Shown: one piece after another, positions 3,301 to 54,300 of the stretch
Layout: each line of letters starts with the position of its first letter
Position numbering within the stretch: position 1 is the first letter of the stretch
From: Botryllus schlosseri
Taxonomy: Eukaryota
Direction: 5' to 3'
Assembly (NCBI GenBank): GCA_051294905.1
Contig: CM119372.1
Span: forward strand, 9,364,001 to 9,428,000
DNA: 64,000 nt
Translations under genes and position numbers: made by a program
The notes under the pieces: generated by a model
The model's database searches: none
The model's input: the letters and a program-made list of their open reading frames with translations, nothing else
What the model was told of the DNA's origin: nothing

Positions 3301-6300
3301 ACCTGAAAGCAGGATGAGGGCATTCACCGAGCATGGTAGCGGTGATCTTGTGGTAGGTGCTGCGCAGGTTCAGCTTCAAGCCGTTTGGTGGTTCTGTGAC
3401 TACTTTGAGGGAACGCTGCAATATTCCGATTGGAAATTCAGGGATGGATTCTGTCGTCAGCCATAATCTGAAGGAAAGAACATTTCAAAATGTGAAATTC
3501 GCGGAGTGAGACGCGGCTGCGGGATCGCCTCCTTTGAAATTCGCGATTATGACATCACAAGAGCGCCAGCGCTTCATGCCGTACGGCTTTTCTCGATTTT
3601 ATGTTGGAAAAATGTAATATTTGAAGTCGGACCCAGAGGTGGTCAGTAACCAAGTACTTACTCTTTTCAAATCCTCGCCTACTTGTACTACTTACTCAAA
3701 CTGTTAGACTACTTTTACTTTTACTACACTTACTACTTACTACACTTTTGAATTTTGCAAAGAAGAAAGTAATTCTGAGATAAGTTTGCATCGCTGTAAT
3801 GATCCAATTCGTCGCGATAACTGGACGAAGTAGTCCCTATATCACGGCAACTGATGTATTCTCAGAATTGTACCTAATTGTGGTGTCATTTTGAGTTTGT
3901 GTTGATAAAGAACCGAGCGATTCAGGCAGTTGCCGCCACCGACTGATTGCTATAAGTATGCGATACAAGACCAAATCTACAATTGAATAGTATATTCATA
4001 TTGAAATGAACCCGAATATTTTCGGCTGACACTCGTCAGGGGTAATCGTCAGCAACTAGCATAGAATTGGAAAGAAGATTGTATATCAACAATCGTATCA
4101 CAAAATATGAGGTCACCAGCAGCAAGACCAAATCTACGTTTTAGAAACAACTCACTCGAGTATATTTCGGTCGTTCATTTTCTGCCTTGACATGTTTTGG
4201 AAATCTCTATTTCCACTCGTAATCGAGTAGAAACACTAAAGATTACTTCTACTTTTACTCAAGTACCAATGATGACTGCCGTCAAGCGAAAATTACAAGT
4301 TAAAAGCGATTATTCTCAAACCGCACCTAAAATCTGGATGCGGTTTCTGAATCCTTTCCAACGCTTTTTCCAAATCCTTGAGCCACTTCACGAGAAGATG
4401 GCAGTTTTGTAGCATGAGCCACTGTCCCCGGGCAATAGCAGTCTCTAGAAACTGCAGCGCCACCTTCTCCTGACCCTGACCCATGGCCAGAAACTTCAAA
4501 CGGTTACCGCCGAATCCAGACCTGCGAATTTGCAATGAAGGGCAATGTAATTTGGAGCCTCAAAGTACCATCAGCAGCGCCAACCTTTCCGCCAATTTCA
4601 GCAGGTCGGAAGCCGGGTCCGATCCGGGGCTCAGGATGAAGACGATGGGTGAAAACGGCGTGCTCTGCTCGTAGATGGACTCGAAGCTGATGATCGGGGG
4701 TTGGACGTAGATCTCGCCCACAGTCTTGATGACGTAGTTGGTGATGGCGCGAATCACGCGGTCCACGCGGAAACATCTGGATATGGAGATATTTTTTTTT
4801 AATACAGTAAAACACCTGTTTTTAATTCATTTTACATTTAAATATATATATCTTCAGAAATAGCAATAGTTTACCAAATATCATACCAATACTACGTCAA
4901 AGATTTCCCATTGATTATCTCTCATTGTGATATCATAGGAGTGTGGATGATTAGAAAATCTCAAATATGTACGGTACCTTTTATGTGACCACAAAGAATA
5001 TACTGCTAGTTGTCCACCACTGAAATGTCATTTACACAAACTTGCAAAGTTTTTTACCACAAATGTTTTGGTAGTAAGTAGCAAAAAGTAGCGAAACTAT
5101 AATTTTCTTACCGCAAAGGATCATATAATTTGAGTCCTCGAAAAATCTTCACTCACTACTCGACCCGAATTCCTATCCCACTTAAATACTTTATTCAGAT
5201 TCAAGCGCTTAAATGACTGTGCCCAGCCCCATCATTAAGCGATGGAGGGATGGAAGAGATCAGCTCTTCTTAAAAATACGAAGATTTACACAAAAACACA
5301 TACCGTAAAAGAATGAGTCGGTCGAAATCCTTCAGCTTTTCCTCATATTTTCCAGGGAACGAAATCGATTCCGGGCTGTCGTGATCGAACCACTCCTTCC
5401 AAACGCGTTCGTTACGCTCGATATCGTCCGGCAGAGACGAGAATATATCGGGGGACATGTTCGCCAATTCGATGACGTCCTGCCAGCCCTGGTCCGGAAT
5501 CCAATCGAAAGGCTTGCGGCGACTATAACGACATGATCGAAAAGCTATTAGTAAGGAATATCGATTTCACTTTGCACCAATGCTTGAGACTATATTCGGA
5601 ATATATCCTGATGACATTCGACGAAGTAATACCTCCATTTCAAGAGAATGTATTCCCAGCATCTGTATCAGTCAAATTAACATTCGATAGGACTATCATG
5701 ATAACACGTACTTGCAGTGAGAAATATGGAAAATTGAGTGTTACGTGGTTAACAGACTGGTATTTGCGTGAAGGATAAAAATAATATACACATTCGATTT
5801 TGTAAAAGGTTCAACATACACAATATGCCATGGGTGCGTTAAACAATAAAATCAGTCTGGACTTGGCATCTGTGTCTACGAGACGGGCCGCCATGGTATG
5901 TCGAGCTAACCAGGCAGTTCAGTAACTTGAAGCCCGGTTTGTTGAGGAAAATTATGCGGTGCAGCAGAACAGCATACACAAGGAATCTCCTGGAGTCAGA
6001 TTATAACAATTTCAGAAATATGGCAGCCGGCAACAGTCAAATGATCATCGACAACATCACGACGAGCAACCAATTGCGTACTAGATCATCATTCGACTGC
6101 ATGGATGCAGAATAGAAGAGAAATTGAGGAGACATATCAAAAGCACGCCATCACCTGCTCTTTTCGAGGGCGATATTTCCCTTGTAGAAGAAGTCCAATT
6201 CTTCCTGCTTGATCTGTCCCTGATCTTGAACCAGCTTGATTGTCATTTGGAACGAGAAGAGTAGCTTGTGCTTTTCAAAGAGACCTGACGTTCAGAACGG

Positions 6301-9300
6301 AATTAGCAATGTGAGTATCGGGTCTATCGAATCTGTCGGATCACCATGATAGACCAGATGCTGAATGATTATATATTGACAATAGGAGGTGGTTTGTAAT
6401 GAAGTAGTCCCATCTTTTTGGAAATGCATGTGAGTTTACCGACTGCAATGCTTACATGAGTGATACTGTTTTAGATTACTTCTACTATTACAGTAGCTCT
6501 TCAATTTTGTAAACTACAAAAAGCTATTGGATAGATTCTCAACGCTTTTGAGATTGAAATTGCTACTAGAAAATCAAACATCTGCATCACAATCGTGACA
6601 TATAACTTAAATATCACAATCTGACATATCGAACTCGCCTACCGACACATGCAGCATTCATTTTTATCGCTTCCTTCTATGTTATCCTTTCTCTTGTCCA
6701 GTGTGCATGCCACTTATTGTGGGTGTCTGATTAAAAGACTATTTTAAGTCATTTTCGCACCCTCCTATCTTTTCATTATATCGAAATCGTGAGGTGGATT
6801 GATTTGATGAAAATTTTACTGAAATGATAATGATAATTCATAAAAACGAAAGCTATTCAGCGTCAGTCACTGATTGTGTACTGCAAGTTGGCGTGGTTTA
6901 TTGCAAAATAAAAGTCCTACATCGCTGTTTCTTTACAAAAAAGCCCAGAGAATGACCCGATGAAAGACGAGTGCAAGGAAGAGAATGGAAAGAGCGAGGA
7001 AACGTCAAAAAGAGAGACAGCCGAAATATCAGGTTTGAAGACGGTTACATCAGGCATTAATTCGAGTGATACCAATAGGTTGAGGTGGATGTTAGATTGA
7101 TAGACTTTACTTAGCCGTTTCGACATCCTATCTGTTCGTTACATCGCATTGTGTCTCCCGTGTGACATCATAAATTGTATGTCTTAGGCAGATTAAAATC
7201 ATAGAACATCTGGTTTTGATCATGATTATGGAAGTCAGAATTAAGTTTTTTACGTCGGTTTACGTGAGTACTTAGAAAAATACGGTTGTCGGCTGCATTT
7301 CGACATACTTTCAGCCTGCCGATTACTCGACTGGCACTAGAACTTCGCAGGGTAGCTTCTACTTCAATAGCAGTGACGAATACATCGACTTTATCCAAAG
7401 CACTTATCAAGCCCACAGCAATCAACACCCGACCTGTGCAAGCGTAGTTGTAGATGTTGTGAGTCAGCGTGTCGATGATGTACTTCAGGCGCTTGTTGAG
7501 ATTCGCGTCCGGCAGGCTTTTACGCAACGAGAAGTCGAACACGTCCAGGAACGAAGCCAGCGAGAACTGGTACATGTTGTTGATGATGGCCATTTCCGAG
7601 AGGACGAAAAACAAAATGGCGCCGCGACGGGCCGCGGGACGGTATCTGAAGAAACGGGTCGTGATTGCATACAAGAGGAGGTCAAATTATCTCGCAATAT
7701 ATTACACAGCTTATACACTCACCCATCTCTGAGTTTATCGATGTCAACAGCGGTGACGGCAGCGAGTTTCAGCTTTTCCGTCACTTCTGTGGCCTTAGAT
7801 TTTGTCTCTTCCAGTGTTTCGATCAGCTCGGTGTTGTCCAACATGTTGCCTGTAACGCAAAGATGGCATATAGTATAAAATTTGTCGCAATATTCAGGAA
7901 AGTGGAACTGAAGAAAAACTAAGGTTCCATCACGTTCAGTGAGTTGTTATCAGCACTTTTAATCTGCCTGGAATCTGTTGTACCAAGTCGATTGGCTAAA
8001 ACGTGGCAAAGGCTGTTGAAGAAGTGCCAATTGTGCGTGGACAGGTGAAATGGGTTTCTCAGTGTGCTACATTTAAGAGCTAAGGTCAGGTGGACTAACA
8101 GAATGGCCAACAGAGCTGTAAAATCACAGAAACACGCATATACTGACTCTGCATGGAGGGTTTTGAGATAGAAAACGCACACGACACAACGCGCAATTTC
8201 CTGTCAGGCATTAAAGGTTGTTGTGCATGGACCGTTACCGAATTTTATAGATAAGTTTCGTCATGACATTTACCAATTCCTAATGACACAGTGGGTCTCA
8301 CCATTACTACTGGAAAGTATAAGAGCTACCCATTGCTTATGTATACCCGGTCTATTGCCAAAAAGGTTCCACAGCAATCCGGTGAGAGACAGCCTTTAGT
8401 TACAGTAACATTCACGAGCGTGAATCAAGTCATACGCGGACCAAAGCAGCACCTTTAGAAGTGGCAAGCTCTCTCAGGAGAGAATCTTCCAAGTCTTTTA
8501 GCAACTTTTTATTTTCTGACGTCTCCTGAATGAGACGCTCACGCTGCTCTTCCAGCTCTTTCCTCTCAAACTTGACAATAACGGAAAGCAACTGATCTGA
8601 AGTAGTTTGAAAGGGAATTTTTAAAAATTGATATCAACTCGATGGTTTATAATCGCAAATCGTAAACACCTCACCTTCCAGCCCTTTCAAGGTGACGGTA
8701 TAGTTAATGACCATGGCTTTGCCAAACACAGCTGGTGAATATCGTGGATTGGCCAGCTTGCTGGTCAAGTACAGCTTGAAATTCGAGTCGTAGTCCACCT
8801 CCTTGTCGCCTGTAGAATCAGCTCGATTAAGTCGAAGGAAAACTATGATTTAAGTCGATCTGAGCCAAGGTAAGTACACGCATGGGATGTTTAACGCACA
8901 TTTTCAATTTGAAATTAACGATACTCTGCTTTATAAGACAATCTTGGAGGTAGAGAACTTGAATATTCAGTTGAATAATATATGTTCATATTGATATAAA
9001 CCCAAATATTTTCGGCTGACACTCGTCAGGGGTAATCGTCAGCGACTAGTAGACAATTCAAAAACAATTTGTATATCAACACTCGTATCACCAAATATAA
9101 CTCTGATTTCTACTATTGTGTTGTAATTACAGTTCTGATATTACCGAGCATGACAAACTCGCGTCCCGCGTCGCCCTTGATGTTTTTCTCCAAAACATTG
9201 TCGATGACCGGGTCGATGTACTCGTCAACGTCCTTGAACAGGAAGGGAAACCCGTACTTGATGGCCAGTTCGAGTTGCTTCAAAAAGTCCGGGCTGTTGA

Positions 9301-15300: not shown

Positions 15301-18300
15301 TGTAGGTCAGTGACGAAAGCGTCGTGTTGTCATGACAAAATCGTTCACGCGTCTCCGGGTGAAGGCGAAAAAAATCTGGCAACGGTATTTCGGAAAATGA
15401 CGTCTGAAAATCGATACTCGACTAAGTGACAAGAATTGACGCGCACTTAAGGTTGAGCATCGATCTGCACTTAGTTGAGTAGAGAATCGCAGTTGAGTAC
15501 TACTTTGTTAAGGAGAAGAATTGGCCTCAGCCCTAAGATATCGTACTTTATTTGCAAATTATATTACCATCCTTTTAACGTGCACATTTCAATGAAGTAG
15601 ACTAATTTCCAGCTAATCCGTGTCATATCTTTTTTGTTAACTGGCGATGTCTTTATCCGAACTTTACCATGGGCCCTAGTGGAGATGGAAACGAGTGGAA
15701 CAAGCATCCCCGCCCCTTCCGGCGTTACTGGAATACGATTTTTGGCCATGTCGAGTGACGAAATTTGCCACCGTAAATGCTACTATTTCCAACTCGGCAT
15801 CTACTGGTTGGAATTTAGCCAAACGATTAGGTAACCTAACGATTTGACAACTAAGCCGATGAAATTTGAAAAACATGTTTTTTTTAACCTGATATCGTAG
15901 ATTTTGGAGTAGTCAAAGAGCGTTACTACCGGCAGCAGTCCAACACATAATGCAATATTGTAGCTTTGATTTGAATAAAGATAAATAGAGTATCAGTGGA
16001 ACCTAAAGTGGCAGGGAGAGTAAGGCAGCGGAACAGATCATACCGCTGCGACAATAGCTTTTTTAGCGGCGCTTGGGAGGTTTGAAGCATCAGCAACCAG
16101 GATGGAATGCGGATATCAAAGCAGCAACAAAACCAGTTATTTGAAGAGCTTCTTGGAGGTAAATTTTAGTGTATTCATTCTTAGTTACACAAAGATGAAC
16201 GAGATGAACCAAATATTATGACAAAATCCTACCTTGTTTTGCTCCTCAATTTCCAGAGCCTTGGCGGAAGCGAGTTCTTTCTTTTCCACGGCGACCACTC
16301 GCTTTGAGGTGATGTCTTCCAGGAGTTCTTCGCAAGCTTTCGTTTTTTCGGTAACAGCAACCTATTGCAAAATCACATTTGAACGAAGGGAGCATTTGAA
16401 ACGATATTCATTTAGTTTTAGTAGAAGATCAAAGTCGATCAAGGACTAATATAGAACGGCGGGTTGGTAATTCAGGCTCAGTCGGGCACACATACGGAGA
16501 AATATTGTCCAAGCTGCTATATTATGTCCCAAATTAGGCCTGACATGTCAGCACTTCGAACCTAGCATTCCAATTTCAGTTGAGTTGGAATTAAAATCAC
16601 GAATCAAATATATCTCATATACTCAAATATATTAAGACGCCTGTGGCTGTGAACTATGATCTCACAAAGTATGAGCGTCATCTCTGCTATTTTAATGCCA
16701 AACACACAGAACCTTTGGTCATGATGCTACTGTTTATTGAGGTATCGTTCATTATAGATTAAAACCAACATAAGTCAAGATATGCTTACCTTTTGCACAG
16801 CAAGCTTTTTATTCAGCTCCTCCAATTGCTCGGAAGCTTCCGATAGCTTCATGAGACCGCCCTCCAATCTCTCGCACATTTTTAAGATCTCCTGATCTTT
16901 CTTGTCGAGCAATCCGTTGTAGCTGGAACGATATCACGTATTTTACTGCTTGTGACAGTATATATGCTCTGCGGTTTTATGCAAAGTGCAGCTTACAAGT
17001 ACCGTACGTGAAATGTGCGATCAAATCATATTGCATACAATGCTTTAAATTTCACCTGGTAATGAAATCCAAATAATTCTTCGGCGTCACGTAGTTGTTT
17101 CTTCGGAGTTTTTGTGCAAAAAGAGTGCTGTAATTGCCCACCGACTGATGGACAAACACGATATGTGCTACCACCTAGCAAAATATTCACACAATAAAAC
17201 GATTGAAAAGTATATTCATATTGAAATGAACCCGAATATTTTCGGCTGACACTCGTCAGGGGTAATCGTCAGCAACTAGTAGAGAATTGGGAAGAACATT
17301 GTATATCAACAATCGTATCACAAAATATGACGTCACCAGCATGAAATTTCGAATGAGAGAGCGATAACGAAAGGAAGGACTCGAATTGACTTGGTGAAGT
17401 CAATCGATCAAACTCCCACCTTAGCCTACAAATATCATAACAAAAATAGATGAATCTGTTAAAAAGAAGCATGCACACTGCACAGTTGCACACTCCATGA
17501 GAAATAGTCAACAGAATATTTGAAAAATGGGCAGGCGTTGATGAGGCATGTTACACGCCGGGGTTCAGACTTCACGTGAGGTTGTTGCGTCTAAATCGAT
17601 CCGGCAATCTCAACACGCACACTGGCATTTATCCACCAGAAACCACCCCAAACTGCTGTATTCAACGCAATATCCTACCTGATCAACATGCTCTTCTGGG
17701 ACCATTTGATTTTCCGACAGGAACGAAGTGGCAACCGCGTACAAAGCCTGCTCGGGCCAGGGCATGAACCAGTCGATGACCGTATTGTTGACCATGCCAG
17801 GGAAGTTTCTACATCTGATCCTCAGCAAATCACCGACGGGCGACATGGCAAGCACGATGTGCAGGTTGTCTCGGCATTTGCTGACGAAAAACTGCCAGAT
17901 AGCCTCTTTCGCTGGGCCGAATCTGAAACGTAAACAGCCAATCACTGACGCGTACCTACCTATTTGTTGTCACATTATTCATTCTGCATCAGTCGTGAAG
18001 ATACATCTTGCTATTTCAAAAGTAGCCACCTTCAATGCTAAAAGTATGGGCCACCTCAACCTAATCTACTTTTAGAAACATATTACTGAAATACTATTCA
18101 TACCATCTATTTTCCAGTTCCACTTGAAGTAGCCTTGAGATGTCTTCTGAATCACTACAACTTTGAATTGAGTAGAGATCTATAGCATTACCTATACCTC
18201 TACCTGAGAAGCAACACCGACTAGTTCAACAACCTCAGGTTTAATCTCATCAATGGCAATGTCTTCTAAATGTCGCAAAGTCAACAAAACTTGAATTTTG

Positions 18301-27300: not shown

Positions 27301-30300
27301 ACGGGGGTTCATGATGGTGCAAAGGGGGTCCGCGAAGACAAAGAGGTTGAGAACCGCTGCCTTAGAACCTATAAATAAGAGACACGCACATTAAACAAGA
27401 CCGAATGAGACGCCCACCTCGTTTCGGCCACCCCCAGCTTTTCCCATGGCTGCCACATATCCCATGTCGCGCAGGTACTTATAATTCAGCTCTTTGCCTC
27501 GATCGTACATGCCGCCCTTTTCCAAGAGCAGCTTCAACAGAGCGATAGGCTGCTGCGTGCCGTACGTGTCGACTTGCGGCATGTTCATGTCGTCCATAAA
27601 CACGATGAGGCGCTTGCCGGGCGGTGGGCCGTAGGTGTCCTTGGTACGTTTCTCAACATTGGCTTCGAAGTTTCGCTGTACGTCCATGGAAGTCGTACGC
27701 GATGAGAAGTTGATGTGCAGTTGGAGGTAGGCGTCCGGATCCAGGTTGCGCAGGAAATTCTAGAATAATCGTAATAATCAGAATTAGCGACAAACCGATT
27801 ATATCGGTTTGCTGATAATATCGCCGTGACAGTACAGAACTTCCATGTCACAACAAACAATATATTCATGTTGCCAAATTTATTCCACTCCAAGCTTTTC
27901 GGCTGACCGACTGACTGACTGACCGAACATCCGTAAATTATATAGATAGAATTTTGCCGTTGTGACGTTAACGGCAAGTAAACAGACTCGCGAACAGCAT
28001 ACAACAGCGGAGAGGTAACGATATAACGCAGACAATATTCACAGAGTATAGAGATGTTCTTTCTGGCAGCAGAGGATTAGCTGTTGCAGCTCTGCTAGTC
28101 ATTATTATGCCAAAATTCTTTCTATATTTCTAAATTCTCTTGGTAAAGTCTGTATATACCTGAATAGTGGCGGTCTTGGATGTACCGGTTTCGCCGACGA
28201 GTACGACGGGACGTTTGATTTGCATCATCCTCTCCAAAAGCCACGTCGTCCGCGTGGTATCGATGGTAGGAACGAGAATTTGGTTGTAATTCAACGCAGG
28301 GTCGTGGACGTATCTGCGATTTCAAACGTTGTCCATGAGACTGTCCCAAATAGGTTGCAAAATACAGTGACAAGTGACGAGAGAGAGTGACAGAGAGTTG
28401 ATCCAGTATCAATACTGATTTTAATATATTAATTATTTCATATATATATTAAAATACAAAGCTTTTTGAGCTGACACTCTTCGGGTAATCCTCAGCGAAT
28501 GAGGAATTTCAAAAACTCGAGCTTGGCCAATTACGATGGCATAGTTACATCATAAATCACTACTGAATGTAACAACGTTAGCGATACAAGTCCTGTCTTG
28601 AACGAAATGTTTGTAAAGAGAGAGAAAGAGTTTTATTACTTTGTCGACCAGATATGAATAATATATATCATATTGAAATAAAGCCTACTATTTTCGGCCG
28701 ACACTCGTCAGGGGTAATCATCACAACTAGTAGATAATTGAGAAGAACAATGTATATTAACAACATATTTGGCGATACGTTTTTTTTTATACTAGGTTTT
28801 TCTCAATTCTCTACTAGTTGCTGACTGAGTCAGCCAAAATAATTCAACAAATAAAATAAATGTGTAAAAAAACAATAACACATATCTAGCTTGATCAGTA
28901 TTGCATGGTGCCGTGATAAGATCATGACCATCTTTGTGTCAATCGTAGCCGGGCTAATAGATTGATGAAACCAATGAAGTCATAATTTATAGAATATAGG
29001 AAGAAATGTGAATGACGCCAAAGTTTTTTGCCATAACACCTTTTCGTAATCAGGTACGGACAAGTAAAATTCATGCCCGACTGCTCTTTCGGCAACATGT
29101 TTTTGAAATTCATGGCAAGATGGCGGGGACATACTTTGGAACAATCTGGCTCCATGGAATCCAGGCCGATTGCTCGACATCGAAGTGATAGTCGTACAGC
29201 GTCTGGTATCTTGAGGGAAGATCGCCTGCTTTGGCAGGACTTTTGTCGTCATCCTGCATACAAAACGCAAACACGCTTATCTTTGTTCGTCGCGAAACAC
29301 GCTCAAACCCGTACCTGAACGGCCGTCATGGCGGACGCCTTTTTGACACATTCGTCAAACTTTTCTCTACCGTCTTCAAGAAGAGACGCGCCCACCGACC
29401 AATAGAGACATTCCAGGAACAAACACTCCAACACCTTGGATAAATTGGACACGATTTAGAAATAATCACCAAAATTTGTCACTCGGCATGCTCAATCCAC
29501 TTGTGTACAAAGACATCCAAGAGTACATGAGTGACATACAGTTTACGTTTCTTAGGCAAAACTAGATCTAAAATACTTAATTTTTTACTTACCTGGACAC
29601 CACTACTAGTAATTATAATCGAGTAAAGACATAGGACACTACCGCTGCTGCTTGAGTAACAAAGATGACTACTTTGACCACCTCTTATCACCATTCCCTG
29701 ATAAATGTAACCGTCACAAGGCGATAACCAATGCGGTAGTCAAGCCACCCCACAGATTGTAAACCATTATTAAAAAGCAATTGTCCAGCTTACATTGGGG
29801 TCGTGATTTTCCATCTTGAAGTCGGCCAGTACCGCGTTCAACATCATGCACAGCTGGGTGACCATATTCAGGTTGGTCTGATGGACGATTTTCTTGAGCG
29901 GTTTGCCTTGCCTGCCGTCCAGCACGCCCTCGACCACCTGCAAACGACCAGAATGTCATGACAGGCGAATTTAAAGTCCCGACGGTGATTTACGGAAATT
30001 TATGAAATACAAGAGACTGGAATGAGATCTTGTTGTGACCCTTCTATGATAACCTACTCATCGACAGAACGTTTTCTAGGTTTTTATGCACTAAAAGCGT
30101 AAAGTCCTACAACAAAAATAAACGTTAAACACAAGTAATTCAGGAAAACATGTGCTACTCCTGGAATACACTGCGATGAGTGATCAACTAACAGACGGAC
30201 AAACAGACAAAACGATTACATGCAGAAATGAAGCTAAGGTATATTGACGACGCAGTTATCGACCAACAAGGTATACATAAACGGTCACTTACGTAATCAA

Positions 30301-33300: not shown

Positions 33301-36300
33301 GCAAAGCTCTCATGAGCACGACCTCCTCGTGCAGGTCCGGGGAGCCGCGCTTCAGATCGCCGGCCATGACCAGGACGGCCTTGAGTGCGCGCAGACCGAA
33401 ATCGTAGTGATGCTGCTTGGACAGCTGTTCTTTTGCGAGTTTGTAAAGGACGGTCATCTTTTTCGCGAGGACTTTGGCGGTCAGGAAGCCCTCGGAGAAC
33501 AGCATGATTTCGCAGATTTGTTGGAGATCGGGAACGATGACGACCACGGGCCTGTGCGGGTAGAGAAAAACAATCAATCATTTGTTCAGCGGTTCTATTT
33601 TCTCATCCATCATGTGCAACGTAGGACAAAAGAAAAAATGTGGTTTAATGAATAGATTTTAATGGAATTACATATTCATTGATAGATGGTCTTCGGCTCC
33701 ATCACTAAATATTTGGTCTACTAAAGGAGGGCGATATTTTTTGGGTACTGAAGCAATTTTACTTCTTGTATGGCACGTGTCTCTTGATCAGTTACATTTA
33801 GTGTTCTTATACTGTCCAATTCTGTTAAGTCTCGGTCACCGATGCCGTGACGCTTACTATTTGTGCTGTAAGGAGGGGATTGAATGGATGACCATCCTGT
33901 CATGTCATCCTGTCCCCGCCCAGTGCCCATGTTGATTTGACAATATTGCTTTCATAGTTTGGTGATGAGATAAATTCAATACACGATCCACTTATCAGCC
34001 TGCGATCTATCTAAGCTGCGACTGGGCAGACGTGGCATAGGCCCTTAAAAACAGCGGGCATTGATGGATTTGAACCCCAATCTAGTGTTTACTTTCCGTC
34101 AAAACTAGAAGAGAATCTCAAACTCTATTGCGTTGTTCCGCATGAGATGATTGAAGACGATAATTTGGATTCGAACGCGGTCAATCGTCACATCTTCGTT
34201 AACACAAACAGCAACCCAAATTTCCTCAACATCACATCGAATTACCGGAACAGGGCCTTTACGCTTTCCGGCAATTCTGTACGGCCGGCGTAACCAGGAT
34301 TCATCGTAATGAAAATGCCCATCCTGTCGTCGAGGGCGATTTCAGTCCCTTCAAATTGGAATCGTTTCAAGTGATGCATCAGAGCGTTGCGTATCGTTTG
34401 AACCTGGAAGCGTCAGTGAATGGAAGTTAAATAGGATTTTACCGAAGAAACGATTGAACTGTACCTGAGAGGACACGACTGACAGGACAGACGCGTCGAT
34501 CCGGTTGAATTCATCGAAGCAACCCCAAGCTCCGCATTGCGCAAGACCAGAGAAGATTTTACCCACGGCCTGGAGATAAAACAAAGTAGTACTTATTACT
34601 GACCACCTCCGGAAGCTAAAACAATGACATAGCAAATCAAAAACGACCTACCTTGAAATCCATACCCTCCCCGCAGTTGGTAACGACACAGAGCAGGCCG
34701 AGAGCTTTCGCCAAATCCTTGGTGGTCTCTACAAACAGAAGAGTAATGGAAATCCGCTATCCAACGTTGCTTTGACGGCATATTTTACCGGTCTTTCCTG
34801 TTCCAGCCGGGCCGGCCGGTGCCCCTCCCAAGTACATCGACAAGGCTTGCGTCAGAGTCAGGTAGATACGATCCGTCAGGGGTGTGATGACGAGTCGACC
34901 GTTCAAACCCATGTATTCATAACTGTGGATTAAAAAGAGACATTATGACGTGAGTACATCTGATATTGTAAATAATTTGACTTGACTAGACTTTGAATCG
35001 GGGTTGGTAGTTGGAGACTGATTTGGGACGTTTGTCGATAGTTGGGAGCAAAGGCGGTCAGAATGGCCAGTGCTCATATTGGCAAATTTATTCCATTCGA
35101 AGCTTTTCGACTGACTCTCATCAGGAGCGAACGTCAGTAAATGCTATATTTCGAATTTGATGAACAGCATTTACTGACGTTCGCTCCTGATGAGAGTCAG
35201 CCGAAAAGCTGAGAGTGGAATAAATTTGCCAATATGAACGTATTGTTTGCTGGAAATGACTAATTGCGCAATTTTCGAAAATATATTCAATTGCCGTGAT
35301 ACGGGGCTGTTTGGCCTGCTTATTATGCCAATTTCAATGTTTTGAATAATTACGTGGGATAAATATTATTTTTGTACATTAACTCAAACTTCGCTACTGA
35401 CTGTATGTGGTTAGGATTTAGAGTTAGAGTCGCACTTTCCAATTCGTTCGAATAATGAGAACGAGTCTCGACAAAATGTTCCAGGAACTCAGTCAACTCA
35501 CCCATATCCGAAAGTGCCGGTACACTGCCTGATCATGAGCTGGTCCGGCTCGCGGTCCCAATAGAACCGCAGCTGCGATTCCCACTCGAATTCCTTGGCG
35601 TCCAAAATGGAGTCTCGCACAAAGTTGTCAATGATATCGCGAGCGTGAACATCGATAATAAGCACTGAAAATGGTGGATGAAACGATATTATCGACAAAA
35701 AAAATCGGGCACACATCGGAAATAACAAAACAAGGCCAGGATAGGATTTACGAGACATGATACGACTGCATTTGAGCGAATGAAAAAATTCCCGTATACT
35801 GTCTCCGCCATCGAGACTAGATAACTACGCTTGTGATTTCGGCAATAGCTATTCAAATAACTGGTTCATGGTACAGAACTTAAAAATTGCTTCATCAAAA
35901 CGTCCATCGCAATTATACATTTATTAATTACATCTGGACTTCTCAGGCGTCTCACATCAATCCTTATCGGTACACCAAAGTAATAACGACACGCGAATTT
36001 CATGGTCTTTAATTCAGATGGTCGCACCAGGAAAGAAAAGGACGTAGTGTATTTTGTCCTTGATGTTTTTTGCGGCATATACACCGACTCATGGACACAC
36101 ATACACACGATCTGCGCGTATGCATATCATGAGTGCATGATGTGCATATGCCGCTTGACAAGGAGGGTGCAGATATAGCCTTGTATGGCTTTCTAAGTCT
36201 TGCACCACCTCTCCCAGTCATGCATGAGCGCCAAGCAGGGAAGTCATGGATACCACTTTTATTAATCAGGTCTTTGGTCTGACCCGGCCGGGGATCGGAC

Positions 36301-42300: not shown

Positions 42301-45300
42301 TCAATTTATTTCCGAAGATTGTACCTATTTGTAGCTTCATTAGTAATTTTGCATCAATCGAGAGGATACATCATGCAATTTTAGAAGTAACCGCCGCGAA
42401 TTAAGTGCTAAAAGCACAAAACCCCTCAAGAAAATATAACTACTTGAATACTTCTCAGAGCTTTCCTTTTCTACATCCCCTTGCGGTAATTTTGACACGT
42501 TTTGGAAACAGCTTCTTCTACTTGTAATTGAGGATCAATTTACAACACTACTACTTGAATAGCAGCGCAGGCTATTTTGACCGGGCAGACATGGGCAGAA
42601 CTGATCCCGCACAAATCTAACACAAAAGCAAACAAACCTCGGCGATCAGAGACAATCCCTTCTCCCAATTTTGCACGGAAGCCAGGAAAGGCCCGACGAA
42701 TCTGGAAGCCGACATTGACTGCAGATTCATTGCGTTGTCGTCCAGGATTTGCAGGACTTCATCGATGGCGCCTGATGACAATGAAAGCGTCTTATAAATG
42801 TCAATAATTTTACACTATCAGCGACAAACCGTACCGAGAACATATCCTCTCTCTTGAGTCCCTTTGAAGTATTTCAAAACCGTAAATTTCATCGATTCCC
42901 ACGTGTCGACGACCTGGAAATTATCGAAAACGTATAGCAGATCGTCGCATAATTAATGTAGACTCGAGCGTACCTCCTTGAGACCCTTTTCTATGCTCAA
43001 TTCCTTCACGGCCGACGTTACTATTTCGTTGATCGTGTCGGCAAAGTTGTGCAGCTGCATCGTGAACAGGTTGTCCAGAGTGAACGTGTCCGGGTTCATG
43101 TCGAAGTCTTTGCCGGTTTTCGCCATCAATTCCTTCCAATGCCTGGAAAACGTTAGTGGAAAGGTCAAAGGGGAATATATATATGGCAATGCGACAATTT
43201 AATAGTGTGGTTTCCCCTGAAGAGTTTGATCCTTGATCATTCAAATTACAATAGTCAAACATGGGAACACATTTCTCATGGTTAACACCGGTGTGTCCAG
43301 CACAAAGCACACATTACTAATTCTAGTAATAGTGTACCTTATGTTCTGCATATTGATTCTTTTTCGGATAACATGATATATATCACACAAGCTTCACGAT
43401 AATCATAATCGCTTAGCTTATCTCTGTATTCTGTCATATTCACTATATACGAATCTAAAATCTAAAATGAAAAACTGCAACACCAGCAAGTTGGGAGCAT
43501 TGGTACAACTCGGCCTATGATATTTTGTTCGCTACCATAATACTTCAGGCGCAGGAACAGTCCTAGTGCCGTGCATCAAATAATATCGAAAACTTATTTG
43601 TTACCTGTCCCTCAAAGCTTCATTTTTCAAATCCAAAAACAGCGGAATCGATTCTTTGAATTCCTTCATTTTGGCTTCCAGATATTGAGCGGGCGGCAGA
43701 AGCTTGACAGGTTTCGGCATTTTACGTAGCTTTTTCATGAAGCCGTCGATGCCCTCCATCAACTGATAAAACCAACCAATTACTTGACAAATACACACAA
43801 ATAAGATATTTCCCAACCAATTCCTGAGACTAATCAATCCATGTTGCACTTCAGTGCAAAATTAATAAACAGTAATCAACCCGTACCTGATTGACGTTCA
43901 AGTTTGCCCAGAGTGTCTGGGACCATTCCTCCCTGGCGTTGGCCTGTTCCTCGTACAGCTGATACACCATATCCAGCCCCTTCATGTCGTTTTGGACTTT
44001 GAAAAGGTCGGGGTACGCCGTGATCGAAAGATCGAATAGTTTTTCGGCATTCGTCAGCTCTTGTCTGGAATAAACAAATGAAATATAATATAATTTATCA
44101 AAAATCAAACTTGATTGATAAGTTCGGTCATCCGTATCAACGAAAATCTGGAAAATTCTTATGAAAAATATTCCCACTCACAATAAGGATTATTGCTAAT
44201 GTGTCTACTGAAGTTCTGTGCATACAAGAGTCTCTTCGAATAAGGATTATATTAGTATTTCTTGATGTGTCTGACCGTGAAAATATGAGCCGCACCTTTC
44301 GCTTTCATATTCGGCGAGTTCCTTTTTGAAGTCTTTCAATATCTTGAAGCCCTTTTCTAAATCGGAACCGACGGCGCCCGGGCCCTCCTCGCGAAATTTT
44401 TCCGAAAACTTTTCGAGCTGCGTCTGGAAATCGGAAATCTGCTCCTTGGTGATGGCGGTGAACTTCAGTTTCACTCCGGTCAAGTTGACGTCGGTGATCT
44501 GAAATGGCGCAAAAACACAGCTTAAACCCAGTGGTAAATCGATAGTTTTCACAATACCGAGTGATATCACGACTTGGGTCAAAAATTAAGGACGGCCAAA
44601 CACTCTTAAGTAGAAAGGAAGCGAATTTCGTGAGCTGATGACTAGAAAAAGGTCAACACTTTCGCCCCCAGTCTTTTGCAGTCATTTTGGTGAGGTAATG
44701 ACTAAAAAGACAATTTCACCTCGTCCTAATCACCGCCTCATTGCCGAAAATATGGACATTCTTGCTGAAAATAAAGACAAATTTGAGAAATAAGGGCATT
44801 GTAGTTTCATAGACAACCGATCTTCAAAATAAGGACAAAGGACGGTATGGTAACCCTGGGTATAGATTTTTTTGAGAGTATATAACATGTAATTCGCGGC
44901 ATTTACAAAAATCTGAAGAGCTTCTTTGAGCTACTAAACTTCAATATACAATTGAAAGGTATATTCATATTGAAATGAACCTTAATATTCAAAAATTCAG
45001 GCCGGGGATGTCATATTTGGTGATACGATTGTTGATATACAACGTTCTTTCCAATTCTCTACTAGTTGCTGATGATTACCTCTGACGAGTGTCAGCCGAC
45101 AATATTCGGGCTCATTTTAATATGAATATAGTTTTCAATATACAAAAATGGTTTCACGAAATAGAATACAAATACCTTCGGTAACATACCTTTGCGTTTA
45201 GGAACAGGTCATCCCACATCTGTTTTATATTCCCCTCCAACTCCAATTCCTCTTCCGACACTGCGATGTTATACATTTGAATCGTGCGGTATCTAGTGAA

Positions 45301-48300: not shown

Positions 48301-51300
48301 TCTCTACACTCTCAGGACTTACCTTGACGCTGGGTAAGTATCCACCAACTTTAGGAGGATAAGGCTTGAAAAGGTTTAGATTTTCAATGAGCTGAATCCT
48401 GCTATCGATATCCCTGGCGTTCTTCTGAATCTGATTGACGAGCGATTCGAATTTGCCAATTGCTGTTTCGCATCGGCTGATATAATCCTGCAAAAGACAG
48501 GAAACGTAGCATTGAGTGCCACGAATCAAAGGTGTAAACTCTGGTAAATTCCCTTACCGGGGTACCCAATGAATTCCAATTCAGTCGCCTGTATCCTGGT
48601 CGCAAAACTCTCTTGAGCTCGAGTATATGATCCCCCAAAAGTTGCATCTGTGGGGAAATATAATGTTAAAATCATGCTAGAGAGGTCACTGTAATGAGTG
48701 TTTCAAAGCTTTTTGCTGAGGATTTTCCAGACATAGATTCATCTACAAACATTTCAATTAGGTAGTTACATATCACGATCAATGTGTAAATGAGTCACAA
48801 TTGCAATTGTAATATGACATTTTGATGGTGAAGCTGGTCAAGACGTAAGTACAGGCTTTGGAAGTAAAATCACACAAACAAACAAAAATTGAACATTGGC
48901 AATGTTGGTATATCTAATCGTTGAAGTTCTTAGCCCTACCTCTGCGGGCTCCAGTGTGTCGAGAAGTGTGTGGTATCTGTTGAGCATGTGTTTCAGTCCG
49001 TTGATGTATTTGAAGTATTTGTCCTCCTGTGGAATGATGCGGCAAAAATTAGTAAGCAAATTTGCAGCTGACATTCTACAGAGCCGCAGAAGTGACAGAA
49101 CGTTGCGTTCATCCATATATAGCAATTTGTCTTCAAGAGCACTGGATAATATCAATTCTACGAGACGCAAAGTTACTTGGCAATCTCTTATCAACCTTTG
49201 CACTGCCTAGTATGCTGGATAAAAACCAGGCCCATCTCCAAATTATTGATTATAATGGCCAAGATATGGCCGAAAGAAACTGAAAACTTTACAAAAACTT
49301 GATTATCTCAAAATGTGTAAAATGAACATAAGCAACTTTGATTCCATAGCGACTCAATAATTCCTGTCTTATCAGTACGTGGCGGCGGCCATTCTGCTCA
49401 TTTTCAAAAATAAAAGTAAAGTCGCAAGCGATCAATCGTACTTGAAGAGCCACGTTTCTCGCACTATCAGGAACCATGAAGCCGAGTTGCTCCATGTATT
49501 TCGTCTCGCTCGTAATCTCTTGGGCTTCGGGAGCATAGTTTACGACGTACTCTTCAGTTCTGCCTTCAACTGAGAAAAAAGAATTATATAGCATCGCTGT
49601 ATAATTCATCGTATTACTGACGTTCACTACTGATGAGAGTCAGTCAAACATATTTTAGTGAATGAATTAACGGATTAACAGAAATCAACTCTTAGAGGTA
49701 CAGAACTTATATATATACAATTGAATAATATATTCATATTGAAATATGACCCGAATCTTTTTGCCTGATTGTCAGGGTTAATCATCAGCAACAAGTAGAG
49801 AACTGAAAATAACATTGCATATCAACAACCGTATCGTCAAATACAATGTAACCGGCATGAAAATTGAAGTAATCGAGGCGAAAAGATGGCTGAAGCTCAA
49901 TGTACTATTTATCGATTAAATACAAACTCCTTCTGTTGGGGCAAACTGGGTTGGCAAATTTCGATGAAAATCGACTCCAAGGCGTAGAAATAAAAGAATG
50001 TGACGCGAAATATGCCGTCTCGATTATTAAATGCTTGCCAATGGCCGGTGACGTCATATTTTGTTATATGATTTTCGACATAGAATATTCTTTTCAATTC
50101 TCAACTAGCTACTGACGATTAGCCCACACGAATGTCAGCCGAAAATATTAGGGTTTATTTCAATATGCATACCGTATATTATTAAATAACAATATGAAGG
50201 TGATGTTTCGTGTGGTCCTACCTTTGTTCGGTGACGACCGACTTTCTTCGATCGTCTCGACATGTTCCGACGAATGATTTTGTGTCGCAGACCCGGAACT
50301 GCTCAAGTCTGAAATAAGAGAGAGAGACAGAGATTAGAAAGACCCATTTTTTGCCAATTTTGCGAGCGTGCGTTTCCACGCGCGTGGCCTGCCTTGAATA
50401 ACGTTGGACGCCGTCGGCAACGCCAGCAGGTTGCGCTTCATATACCCCGGCAGCGACGATTCCACGGCTTCGTTCCAAAGTTTGTACTTTTGGTCTTCGT
50501 AGTCCTTCATGGCTTTCGCCAGGTTCAAGTACGCCGTCTTGGCCTGCGTGTACCGGTGACTAATTTTATTTCAGGAAATTGCACCTATTTGCAGCATCGT
50601 TTGTCGTTTTGCGTTACTTGCAAAGAGGCATCCATCACCCCCGAATAACTGCTAAAAGTATGTCACTAACTCAAGCAATTTTGAGACCTTCATTTCCTAC
50701 TTCTACTCGAAGCAATTTTGACATGCCTTGAATATCCTTACTTCTATCTACATTTGAGTAGAACTTTACAACGTTGCTTCTACTTTTGCTAACAATAACG
50801 TCCCCTGTATAACTCATATTGCCAGACATTTACAACGTCGCGATGTATGACTGTCGTACAGATTGATAAACGGGCAAACAATTCGACTCACGCTTTTGCC
50901 TGCCTCCGTGTTGAGCATCTCCTCGGCCGACTGAAATCTTATGATGGTGTGCTTGATACGTTGGAACAACGATCTCTCCCACGCGATAGCCCCTGCGGTA
51001 GGGGGCTGATTTTTAGCCAGAGGCGGGTCGTCTTTTCCGCTTTCGAAAAGCGAACGTATGATTTCGACCTGAACGTGAAGGAAAAATATTCAGATGGAGA
51101 GACAGAATTGTTTTAGATCGACAAAACATATGTTGTTAGTGATATTCACTGTGCTTTTCGACTGCACTGGTCATTTACACCAGGCCGATTTTCTTTATTT
51201 TGATTCCGTAACTGCTGACGAGCAGCATAGCTCACTTCTAGGCTTTTTCAAGACACCGCTTGCTCGTATCAGATGGCAATAAGAAGTCTAGATAAACCTC

Positions 51301-54300
51301 CAATACTCAGCTAGGAATATTGTAGTCAACCTCGGTTGGACTCGAACCCATAACCCATTGGTGTTGCAGCTGTGGATCATACCACTACGCAATCTCGCCA
51401 CTCAGATATTATGAATACAAGTTAGGCCAAAGTGTATACCAATGCAGAACAACGTTGTAGCAAAAGGATCGGGACATGATTAAGTCTGCCACATCCTGAA
51501 TGAAGTATTGTTGCATTATATGCGACAGTGCTCACATTAGACTAACATGAAAATTCATGATAGAAACTCAGAATAAGACAACACTAGTCAAATACCGTAA
51601 TAAAGAAGAAATTAGTAAGGGAACTAGAAAACCTTTAACAGCACCCAGTAACAGGTCAAAAGGCACGTGATATAAAGGCAAGACAAAGGATTAAGTTGAA
51701 TTCAATCAATTTCAGTCAGATTTTTTCGGTCGCGCTTTAGTGAGCTCGGTGTGTGCCTAAAAAAACGTTCAAATATCTGCCCGCCTCTTTCATGTACTGC
51801 GCCAGGATGTCGTTGAACTTCTGCATCATTTGAGCGTTGATCGATTCTCGCGAGCGGATGTGCTTGAACTTCAAGAGCATGTCGAAAGCGCCTTCGGCGG
51901 ACCGTAGCGTTTTGAAAGACTCGTCGATGAAGCGTTTCGCTTCGCCTGAAAAATCGGCGCGCTTGTAGACTCGTAGTAATGGGAAACGGCGAACAATAAA
52001 TCTAAATTTTTTAATATTTAAACGAATATTTAATTTCAGACAGTTGAGGTAAGTCGCGATCGGCAAATCGAGAAAAATCTTTGTCACAGTGGAACACGGA
52101 TAAGATCTTCGCATCGCAAAACTATTTTCCTAAGCAATCGTTACCTGTTTTGTACCCCAACCATATCGAGCCGGATATGCGACAACTGATATCACATCGT
52201 ACAGCACACTCTTACGGCTGGGTTTTTAGACTACTTCTACTTCTAACAGTTTTACTCACTTTTTACAATTCGGATTTTAAAAGCAGAAAGTAGGCTACTT
52301 GTGGGATAGGTTTGCATACTTTTCATCAGTGAAACTGTCATAAGAACAGCGTTGAAACAGCCACAGCATCATGGCAACTGAATATATTTTAGAAGATCCC
52401 GAGTAGTATCATCAGTCATGTTGCGTTGGTCCCAAAGATATATGTCGAAATTTCGAAAGTAGCCACCTCCGTTCGTGTAACTACTATACAACCCCTCGAC
52501 CAAATCTACGTTTTTAAACTACGTATTCCTTCCATTCCGGCCATTCATTATCTACTTCCACTTGAAATAGTTTTCAAATGTCTCAGAAATAGCAATTTCT
52601 TGTTGTACGGTACATTGACCAACTCTACATGTGACTTATCATATTTCCATGGATCGTAGTCAGGAGAAAATAGCCGCTACGTACCTTCAATAGCCTGGAC
52701 TTCCCGTTCGAACCATTGCATGACGGATTTCCACATGCTCAGCGATTTCAGATCGAACGGATCGACGGTGATGTTCTCGATGGGCTTCACTAAACCGTCA
52801 ACGCGCACCAGCACGTCTTCGATACGTTTCGGATCGCCAGTAACAGCTTTCAATTCGGGACCGAAAATGTTGTAGAACTCTTGCAAGACCTAAATTTGGA
52901 ATGATGATAAATTTTGAATCGAGCGATGCGGCAGAAGTAGGGAATGTCTGGTTGTTTCTGGACGGATGTCGGATATCATCATGCTGATACACCCAACAGG
53001 CCTGGAAATGCCCGCATATTCAATGATAGCCCCCCATGGTGCCTTTGCGCTTATCGACATACAACCTTTAATGGATTTTCAGTAGTATTCCTCTATTAAC
53101 ACCAAATTTTCACCACCTGACATGTAGCGTTGGGTAAAGTTTTGAGATATGAGCAAAGATTTGAGTCGAGTATTCGACTATCAATCATTAGGCTATCATA
53201 TCGTAGTGCTATGGGTGATTCAGAAAATGCAAATAAATATGTATCCTTATGTGACCATAAAATACGACGGCCATTTATACACCGCATTAAAGGTGATTTG
53301 GTATTTTTTCGGTCAATTTCATAGATCTTTGAAACAAAATACTGGTTAACCACTGCTTCAGAAAAGGGTGGTTTGTGCTAAATGTTTTGTATGCTGTAAT
53401 ACAGCTGATAATGGTTTAAAATAGGGGTAACTAACTCAAAATTGGCCAATTTTCCAAGAGGGCCAGAGGGCCAATTCGCCAAATTGGTAGGCGCCGCCGG
53501 CTATGACATAGTTGTATCGAAAGGCAGCACGAGACTGCAAAGTCACTCAATACACCGTTTCCACATCCTGCTTTCATCCAGTATATATCCCGACGGTCTA
53601 CATGCGGGCCACAAGTTAGTGTTCCCTGCTCTAAAGGCTACCACGGTGATAAGAAAGTATTGTAATGGTAATTTCAGGACTTGACAATATTGTCTCTCAC
53701 TACCAGATTGGAAGTGAATAGTATATTCATATTGAAATGAACTCGAATATTTTCGGCTGACACTCACCAGGGGCAATCGTCAGCGACTAGTAGATAATTG
53801 GAAAGAATATTGTATATCAGCAATCTTATCACAAAATATGCCGTCACCGGCATGAAAAATCCTACTTTGCGATTCTTGCGTTAGAACACTAGGGCAAATT
53901 TTAGCTGTCACTTCTAAGTATCTGGCATAACCGATCAGCTTCGTAGCAGCTGGAAAACCAGGATCTTGGAATCCAAATTCCAACCAGCTTCAATCAAAAA
54001 TCTACAAACCTGAGCCACGTCGGTCAAGTCCTGGCAGATTTGAGCCATATAGTCGGTGCGGTCGAACAACCTCTTCCTGTCGAATTCCCATCTCGCATCT
54101 CTGCCGGAGGCTTCGATTTTCGCGCGCACCTCAAAATAAGTGCTCTTCCACAGTAGAAGCATGTGCTTGGCCTCTTGCGTCAATGCCTTGATCTGAACGA
54201 AAACAAAGATTAAGATTGGCTGGTGGTAGCATAACCACAACACGTGGGCATTGTTAATACTTGATAACAATCCGACAAAGTACAGAGTCAGAAGCCTAAT

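Follow-up and report, generated by a model that had tools for sequence, protein, structure and literature searches.

Results

The motif and its setting

The DNA analysed here, called the window below, is a stretch of 64,000 nucleotides (nt) from Botryllus schlosseri (GenBank assembly GCA_051294905.1, contig CM119372.1, positions 9,364,001 to 9,428,000 of the forward strand). In an intron of a dynein gene, positions 3974..4121 of the minus strand hold the 3′ end of a 5′-truncated Penelope-like element (PLE) of a family that we call A, comprising the 3′ untranslated region, a candidate hammerhead ribozyme and a “tail”. Over 148 nt this remnant matches the 3′ end of the family-A PLE at genomic locus L002 with 95.9% identity. 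The hammerhead motif is complete and occupies 4010..4053 on the minus strand, from the 5′ strand of a predicted pseudoknot through the 3′ strand of helix I.

Read 5′ to 3′, the motif begins with GCUGAC (4048..4053; columns 3-8 of alignment A1, described below), the 5′ strand of the pseudoknot. In the family-A reading a linker, GAUU (4044..4047), leads to the 5′ strand of helix I, ACCC (positions 2.4-2.1; 4040..4043), which covaries with 4010-4013; in the other subfamilies the positions equivalent to the linker mostly lie inside a helix I of 7 base pairs (bp), which leaves a linker of 1 nt. The core box CUGACGA (C3-A9; 4033..4039) is followed by a stem II of a single base pair (4024..4032), in which G10.1 (4032) and C11.1 (4024) close a 7-nt loop II (4031-4025) that reads U plus GUCAGC. 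Positions 2-7 of this loop (4025..4030; columns 27-32 of alignment A1) make up the 3′ strand of the pseudoknot, since GUCAGC is the exact complement of GCUGAC, and 8 nt (GAUU ACCC) separate GCUGAC from the core. After the second core box, GAA (G12 A13 A14; 4021..4023), no hairpin precedes position 17, only the palindrome AAUAUU (15.1-16.1; 4015..4020) in the place of helix III. A 6-nt palindrome cannot fold on itself, so helix III can form only between two copies. Hammerhead numbering places the predicted cleavage site between C17 (4014) and G1.1 (4013). The GGGU that follows position 17 (1.1-1.4; 4010..4013) pairs with the ACCC ahead of CUGA as helix I, which makes the arrangement type I, and the blocks also stand in type I order: CUGANGA, GAAA and then the UH cut site.

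The original prediction had described stem II as a single G-C pair closing a 7-nt loop, and had noted that the loop hexamer is exactly complementary to a hexamer ending 8 nt upstream of the core. Both statements agree with the minus-strand sequence of 4010-4053. That account of stem II stands, but it was silent on the minus strand, helix I, the palindromic stem III, the PLE carrier and the known precedents. Two other readings of the motif were rejected: an intramolecular helix III between AUAUUC and a downstream GAAUAU, with which the cut site and helix I would not fit, and a register that takes the upstream CUGACGA of family A as the core, where the other subfamilies read CUGACGU.

Covariation of the pseudoknot and helix I

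Every core-intact copy in a set of genomic loci and in the window was placed in alignment A1, which gave 130 rows (105 without duplicates); no rows were dropped. The loci are all 100 listed places with a base other than C at core position 7, plus selected family-A pairs; family A is under-represented relative to the genome, and three rows belong to an unrelated repeat with a GUGGACU loop. Across the six pseudoknot pairs 85.1% of the cells are paired, compared with 8.6-36.7% when the partner strand is slid by 1-3 columns, and double-sided changes occur at all six pairs. The pseudoknot has a covariation score of 0.315; slid partners do not exceed 0.100, and none of 500 shuffles reaches 0.315. 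All six pairs are intact in 77 of the 130 copies and five of six in 26. The pairing GCUGAC/GUCAGC occurs in 27 copies, ACUAAC/GUUAGU in 14, ACUGGC/GCCAGU in 11, ACUGAC/GUCAGU in six, UCUGGC/GCCAGA in two (both ends of one element) and ACUGGU/ACCAGU in one. Four pair positions change compensatorily in different subfamilies, while most departures seen in a single copy are uncompensated, as expected for dead insertions. The 8-nt spacing between flank and core is kept in nearly all listed copies.

The compensatory change that the original prediction had proposed for the loop/flank pairing is therefore recovered in the larger set, and the paired cells and slid controls support its proposal of a 6-bp pseudoknot in place of a stable stem II. 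Its further statement, that ACUGAC/GUCAGU occurs at the same spacing in two other copies, is confirmed at 35092-35138 on the minus strand and 49616-49662 on the plus strand.

Helix I covaries as well, with double-sided changes at six of its seven pairs and a score of 0.343 against at most 0.168 for slid partners. It has 4 bp in family A and 7 bp in the other subfamilies (for example UAGCGAA/UUCGCUA and CAGUGGA/UUCACUG). The helix III hexamer is fully self-complementary in 96 of the 130 copies, with three types of palindrome; AAGCTT is found in 48/130, AATATT in 43/130 and AACGTT in 3/130, and subfamilies with a 7-bp helix I have AAGCTT or AACGTT. Among the distinct rows the centre pair of the palindrome is G-C in 47, U-A in 45 and C-G in two. 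At position 17, 73 of the 130 copies have C, 45 have U, eight have A and four have G, thus a non-G in 126/130. The features of a hammerhead core are present, namely CUGANGA, GAAA, A15.1…U16.1 and a non-G at position 17, of which CUGANGA and GAAA were fixed by the search pattern. The proteins of subfamilies that keep the pairing are 57% (260/457) and 75% (471/631) identical, which shows that the pairing was retained through substantial divergence of the elements.

The Penelope-like carrier and its abundance in the genome

In the genome of ~495 Mb the core pattern, CTGANGAG-N7-CGAAA, is found without mismatch 9,085 times, compared with 24 for a reversed-pattern control. C at core position 7, the mark of family A, is present in ~84% of core matches (7,267/8,660). 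The locus L001 is a tandem PLE array with a period of 2,778 bp and two identical open reading frames (ORFs) of 853 amino acids (aa). At L002 (family A) two 5′-truncated ORFs are arranged head to head and the motif at each end points outward, and L005 (family C) is organised similarly. The ORFs of these three loci, which represent different subfamilies, match the reverse transcriptase (RT) domain RVT_1 with E values of 7e-10 to 2e-15; a C-terminal GIY-YIG match is below the Pfam cut-off (18.1 bits versus 22.6). The motif is found in the repeat that flanks this PLE ORF (RT plus the sub-cut-off GIY-YIG), ~105 nt past the stop codon, in the region of the pseudo-long terminal repeat (pseudo-LTR). 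In tandem units the cut site is ~19-20 nt ahead of the ATG of the next ORF. Published traits of PLEs include tandem pseudo-LTRs, inverted 5′-truncated partners and a short tail beyond the hammerhead, as described in the relevant parts of PMC8557442 and PMC11167929. The layout observed here matches them, and the carrier of the motif is the 3′ end of a Penelope-like retroelement. A DNA transposon with terminal inverted repeats was rejected as carrier, since the internal ORFs encode RT/GIY-YIG and the inverted pairs consist of truncated PLE copies placed head to head.

Several further features of the elements were noted. A box like TGACGTCA (ACGTCA) is common to all subfamilies ~40-60 nt upstream of the motif, and so is GAAGTTCTGTAC ~30-55 nt downstream of the cut site (noted at L001 4240-4420 and at 3974-4010 of the window, minus strand). 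In L001 the latter falls within the first 12 codons of the ORF, which means that truncated copies carry the next unit's start codon in their “tail”. At L002 3604-3681 at least two classes of element 3′ end, ~45 and ~72 nt past the cut site, are apparent from loose ends and from the coverage by RNA and contigs, consistent with the variable tails of PLEs. At L020 235-398 (plus strand) a family-B and a family-C motif stand 110 nt apart on the same strand, both with the palindrome AAGCUU, and such a heterologous pair could dimerise. An open frame of C2H2 zinc-finger repeats adjoins the tandem array (L001 2-463, minus strand).

Copies and neighbouring features in the window

When at most one mismatch was allowed, the core pattern matched the window eight times, whereas 0.25 matches are expected and none of 100 shuffles reaches eight. 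Besides the motif described above, family A is represented on the minus strand by a core-intact copy with U at position 17 (9000..9043), a third copy that is identical to the 4010-4053 motif over an aligned 54-nt stretch (17230..17273), a decayed copy with four of six pseudoknot pairs (28682..28725) and a copy with a core mutation, CUGGUGA (53741..53784). A plus-strand family-A copy at 45068..45111 has a broken GAAA box (CGACA). The family-D copy at 35092..35138 (minus strand) combines ACUGAC/GUCAGU with the palindrome AAGCUU and a helix I of seven positions with one mismatch. Its inverted partner at 35173..35219 (plus strand) has five of six pseudoknot pairs (ACUGAC, GUCAGC), a perfect 7-bp helix I and a broken helix III palindrome (AAGCUG). 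The plus-strand copy at 49616..49662, called subfamily 3 in the original prediction, keeps the pseudoknot hexamers (ACUGAC/GUCAGU) and a helix I of UAGUGAA/UUCACUA but has lost the GAAA box, reading CAAAC.

Three PLE queries gave 24 BLAST alignments to the window, at ~13 places, and those to family A are confined to the element's final few hundred nt. No ORF of at least 200 aa was found in the window. Matches to the dynein domains AAA_6 (E 1.7e-54) and AAA_7 (E 1.5e-45) in exon regions at 7168-7686, 27391-27759 and 33113-33577 (all minus strand) place the window within a minus-strand gene for a dynein heavy chain. Six of the eight core-pattern matches are on the minus strand and hence sense in the pre-mRNA of this host gene, so that a single pre-mRNA carries several potential dimer partners. 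A weak match to mir-1270 at 25238-25340 (minus strand; 23 bits against a gathering threshold of 90, E 2.5) is most likely due to chance.

Similar patterns elsewhere

A version of the one-pair stem II with U…U in place of G…C has 132 matches against 25 for its control. These matches are heterogeneous, and no complement between loop and flank was found among them. A small repeat with U…U at this place, CTGATGAT-CATTGCC-TGAAA, at G000:C1:4106611, 4318959, 4558425 and other places, is likewise without an upstream complement to the loop. A separate repeat is that with the GUGGACU loop, CUGAUGAG followed by the loop and CGAAA, at L011, L026 and L083 (G000:C1:1478475, 7163095, 40180352). It too lacks the loop/flank complement (3-4 of six pairs), and a non-palindromic AUGUAC follows its GAA. 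A metagenome scan for core plus loop gave two matches, neither with an upstream complement; the collection holds little animal DNA, and the scan therefore says nothing about distribution. In the supplement of PMC8557442 some consensus sequences of Naiad PLEs have CUGANGA and GAAA boxes that are accompanied by long-range complements or arranged in a different order; the same source reports these PLEs as being without canonical hammerheads.

Discussion

Proposed fold and mode of action

The covariation of the pseudoknot and helix I, the intact core and the PLE setting together argue that the motif is probably a PLE hammerhead of variant build, in which a pseudoknot replaces helix II and a palindrome provides a dimeric helix III. 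Locally only G10.1-C11.1 closes, and helix II is not a hairpin. Instead the six 3′ bases of the loop would pair with the flank hexamer that ends 8 nt before the core. In the loop, the strand GUCAGC leads directly into C11.1, so that the 6-bp helix can stack on the G10.1-C11.1 pair and would thereby give a 7-bp helix at the place of helix II, with the one remaining loop nucleotide bridging the stacked helix. Helix I would be connected at its outer end to the 3′ end of the flank strand by 1 nt where it has 7 bp, or by 4 nt where it has 4 bp, and a linker this short may keep helices I and II alongside each other, a task that falls to tertiary contacts in other natural hammerheads. We infer the coaxial stacking and the side-by-side geometry from the contiguity of the strands and the length of the linker.

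The active fold would be completed when two copies pair through their palindromes. Cleavage would then take place mainly in transcripts or complexes that unite two copies, for example tandem PLEs, and would presumably depend on dimerisation. Its role would be the trimming of PLE RNA by self-cleavage.

A number of observations weigh against this interpretation. The copies in alignment A1 are related by descent, so that cell counts overstate the number of independent events, and there are about five distinct multi-copy variants of the pseudoknot. The search pattern itself required the G10.1-C11.1 pair. RF00163 reaches at most 22.8 bits in the genome, below its threshold of 34 (73 of 70,463 candidates were scored), and the best RF03152 score is 27.6 bits against 56.3, with scores in the range 20-27.6 and none over the cut-off. 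In nearest-neighbour calculations an inactive nested fold of –10.5 kcal/mol is preferred for family A. The bulk RNA-seq run X23, of which ~6% was read, shows depth continuous over the predicted site (453/519 in the bin before it, 419/461 in the bin that contains it) and no read ends at that site, nor were starts or ends of molecules reported anywhere; bulk RNA-seq is, however, a weak test of cleavage, and monomers should be inactive. Moreover, 98% of the element reads in X23 run into unlike flanks, and both orientations are about equally represented.

The last ~170 nt of the element are covered ~420-520-fold in each orientation in X23, which demonstrates that copies are transcribed, and the pattern as a whole fits passive read-through of scattered copies within host RNAs, without visible cutting. 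The part of PMC11167929 that deals with this question likewise reports no visible cutting for another PLE. For family A, the energies that compete with the nested fold are –7.4 kcal/mol for the pseudoknot helix alone and +0.1 kcal/mol for helix I plus the G-C pair. The C at core position 7 in this family makes the core CUGAC complementary to the loop GUCAG, and in the predicted inactive fold these two segments are paired and a CCGAA/UUCGG hairpin covers the GAAA box and the cut site. This modelled fold could be an off-state, or could simply lower activity. As regards the covariance models, RF00163, RF00008 and RF02275-7 gave no hammerhead match in the window even at E values up to 10. The RF03152 model aligns to the motif with helix III deleted, and sub-cut-off matches to it also occur in 9 of 14 control genomes.

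Alternative explanations

The 6-bp pairing might have nothing to do with catalysis. It could form a hairpin with a 17-nt loop for RT recognition or priming near the 3′ end of PLE RNA, the hammerhead boxes being vestigial or non-catalytic; we regard this as unlikely. Taken alone the pairing is indeed a nested hairpin, of –3.5 to –7.9 kcal/mol, no cleavage ends appear in X23, and the sections of PMC11167929 on these subjects report that PLE reverse transcription starts internally near this region and that hammerhead mutants had no effect on in vitro insertion in another PLE. A priming hairpin, however, needs none of the hammerhead requirements, and these all co-occur and are kept at 57% protein identity, with the covarying helix I bracketing the core exactly. 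The two roles are not mutually exclusive.

It is quite improbable that the pairing between loop II and the flank takes place in trans, between the molecules of a domain-swapped dimer, as a second dimerisation contact. Dimerisation through the helix III palindrome is required of the motif in any case, and covariation is blind to the difference between cis and trans. Against such an arrangement, the flank-to-core spacing is fixed at 8 nt in nearly all listed copies, the linker of 1-4 nt to helix I suits an intramolecular clamp, and in the solved structure of a pseudoknot (PK) hammerhead, as presented in PMC11300833, the pairing is in cis. Finally, the complementarity and its covariation could be a product of repeat history, that is, of chance and descent, or could reflect an inverted-repeat DNA structure of a DNA transposon. 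Copies often occur in inverted pairs, and related sequences can beat column shuffles without any structure. The slid controls keep this relatedness, and yet only 9-37% of their cells are paired and their scores are at most 0.100; compensation at four pair positions in different subfamilies argues in the same direction. The elements encode RT and no DNA transposase, the inverted pairs are head-to-head 5′-truncated PLE copies, and both pairing strands are inside one arm, all of which makes this explanation highly improbable. A hammerhead with a pseudoknot in cis and a dimeric helix III thus remains our preferred interpretation.

Relation to known ribozymes

The minimal hammerheads of PLEs described by Cervera and de la Pena in 2014 (PMC4209133) resemble the motif in many respects: their location in the pseudo-LTR, a copy number in the thousands per animal genome, the type I order of blocks, a short (4-5 bp) helix I, the conserved G10.1-C11.1 pair, a palindromic or absent helix III that implies dimers, and dual motifs on opposite strands a few hundred bp apart. 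A palindromic helix III is a published hallmark of dimer-dependent PLE hammerheads (PMC4209133, PMC6765202, in the parts that treat helix III). The difference is in helix II. Ordinary PLE hammerheads have a helix II hairpin of 7-8 bp according to PMC4209133; here there is no hairpin, and one G-C pair with 6 bp to the flank would give the same length of 7 bp. In the supplement of PMC8557442, each of the 38 canonical hammerhead rows for Chlamys and Hydra-clade PLEs includes a local stem II of at least 3 bp, which is absent from the present motif.

RAGATH-1, or PK hammerhead, shares the type I order, and the RF03152 consensus shows the same G-N7-C element. Its crystal structure was described by Zhan et al. 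in 2024 (PMC11300833). As set out in the structural sections of that paper, the loop forms a 6-bp pseudoknot upstream of helix I, with the pseudoknot helix serving as helix II, and the partner strand is the loop of an extra hairpin (helix IV), with an A-rich linker that forms a minor-groove triplex. In the present motif a simple single strand, 1-4 nt away from helix I, acts as partner, and inspection by eye found no helix IV-like hairpin common to the subfamilies. Helix III is a hairpin in RAGATH-1 but a palindrome only in the present motif. The pistol ribozyme has a secondary-structure connectivity close to that of PK hammerheads, according to the comparison in PMC11300833; it differs in its core nucleotides and general acid, while the present motif has the full hammerhead core.

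A one-bp stem II compensated by a 6-bp pseudoknot was described by Perreault et al. in 2011. In the experiments reported in PMC3088659, disruption of the pseudoknot drastically cut cleavage and a compensatory mutation restored it, and the same source gives an estimate that ~40% of hammerheads use a pseudoknot. Unlike the present motif, that hammerhead is described there as type II, metagenome-derived and monomeric, with loop I pairing to the 3′ tail after stem II. The non-circularly permuted SGC, CSG and GCS hammerheads (Eckert et al. 2023, PMC10085705) are similar in that core helices are built from pseudoknots and stems I and II are connected at their sides by a short linker, but they permute the conserved blocks, whereas the present motif has the classical C-G-S order of type I. 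The use of a pseudoknot for helix II is thus itself already known, and what appears to be new is the variant and its setting: an animal PLE, the absence of helix IV and a palindromic helix III. No description of a pseudoknot in a PLE hammerhead was found in the passages covered by a literature search, which did not include Lunse et al. 2017.

Implications

The pseudoknot-for-helix-II design, previously known from the metagenome-derived type II hammerhead of 2011 and from RAGATH-1 or the PK form, would on our interpretation also exist in animal retrotransposons, with ~9,000 copies in one genome. With only 1-4 nt joining the pseudoknot strand to helix I, the motif would be a natural minimal test case for ribozyme structure. 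Current Rfam models miss it, and the published RNAmotif searches of PLEs describe a stem II hairpin, which is absent here. Animal hammerhead counts may therefore be too low, and statements that some PLEs lack hammerheads may be off.

We suggest tentatively, as a possibility that we rate below even chances by a good distance, that helix-IV-free pseudoknot hammerheads are widespread and unannotated in animal PLEs, missed by Rfam and by searches that require a stem II, and that they act as a conditional-cleavage switch. If so, they could explain some of the PLE lineages that PMC8557442, in its survey of these elements, reports as without canonical hammerheads or with “HHR_core” only. If cleavage needs a partner copy as well as the pseudoknot, it would be conditional on transcripts that are tandem or paired, and the element would have a built-in switch that tells its own RNA from the dead copies that lie by the thousand in host introns.

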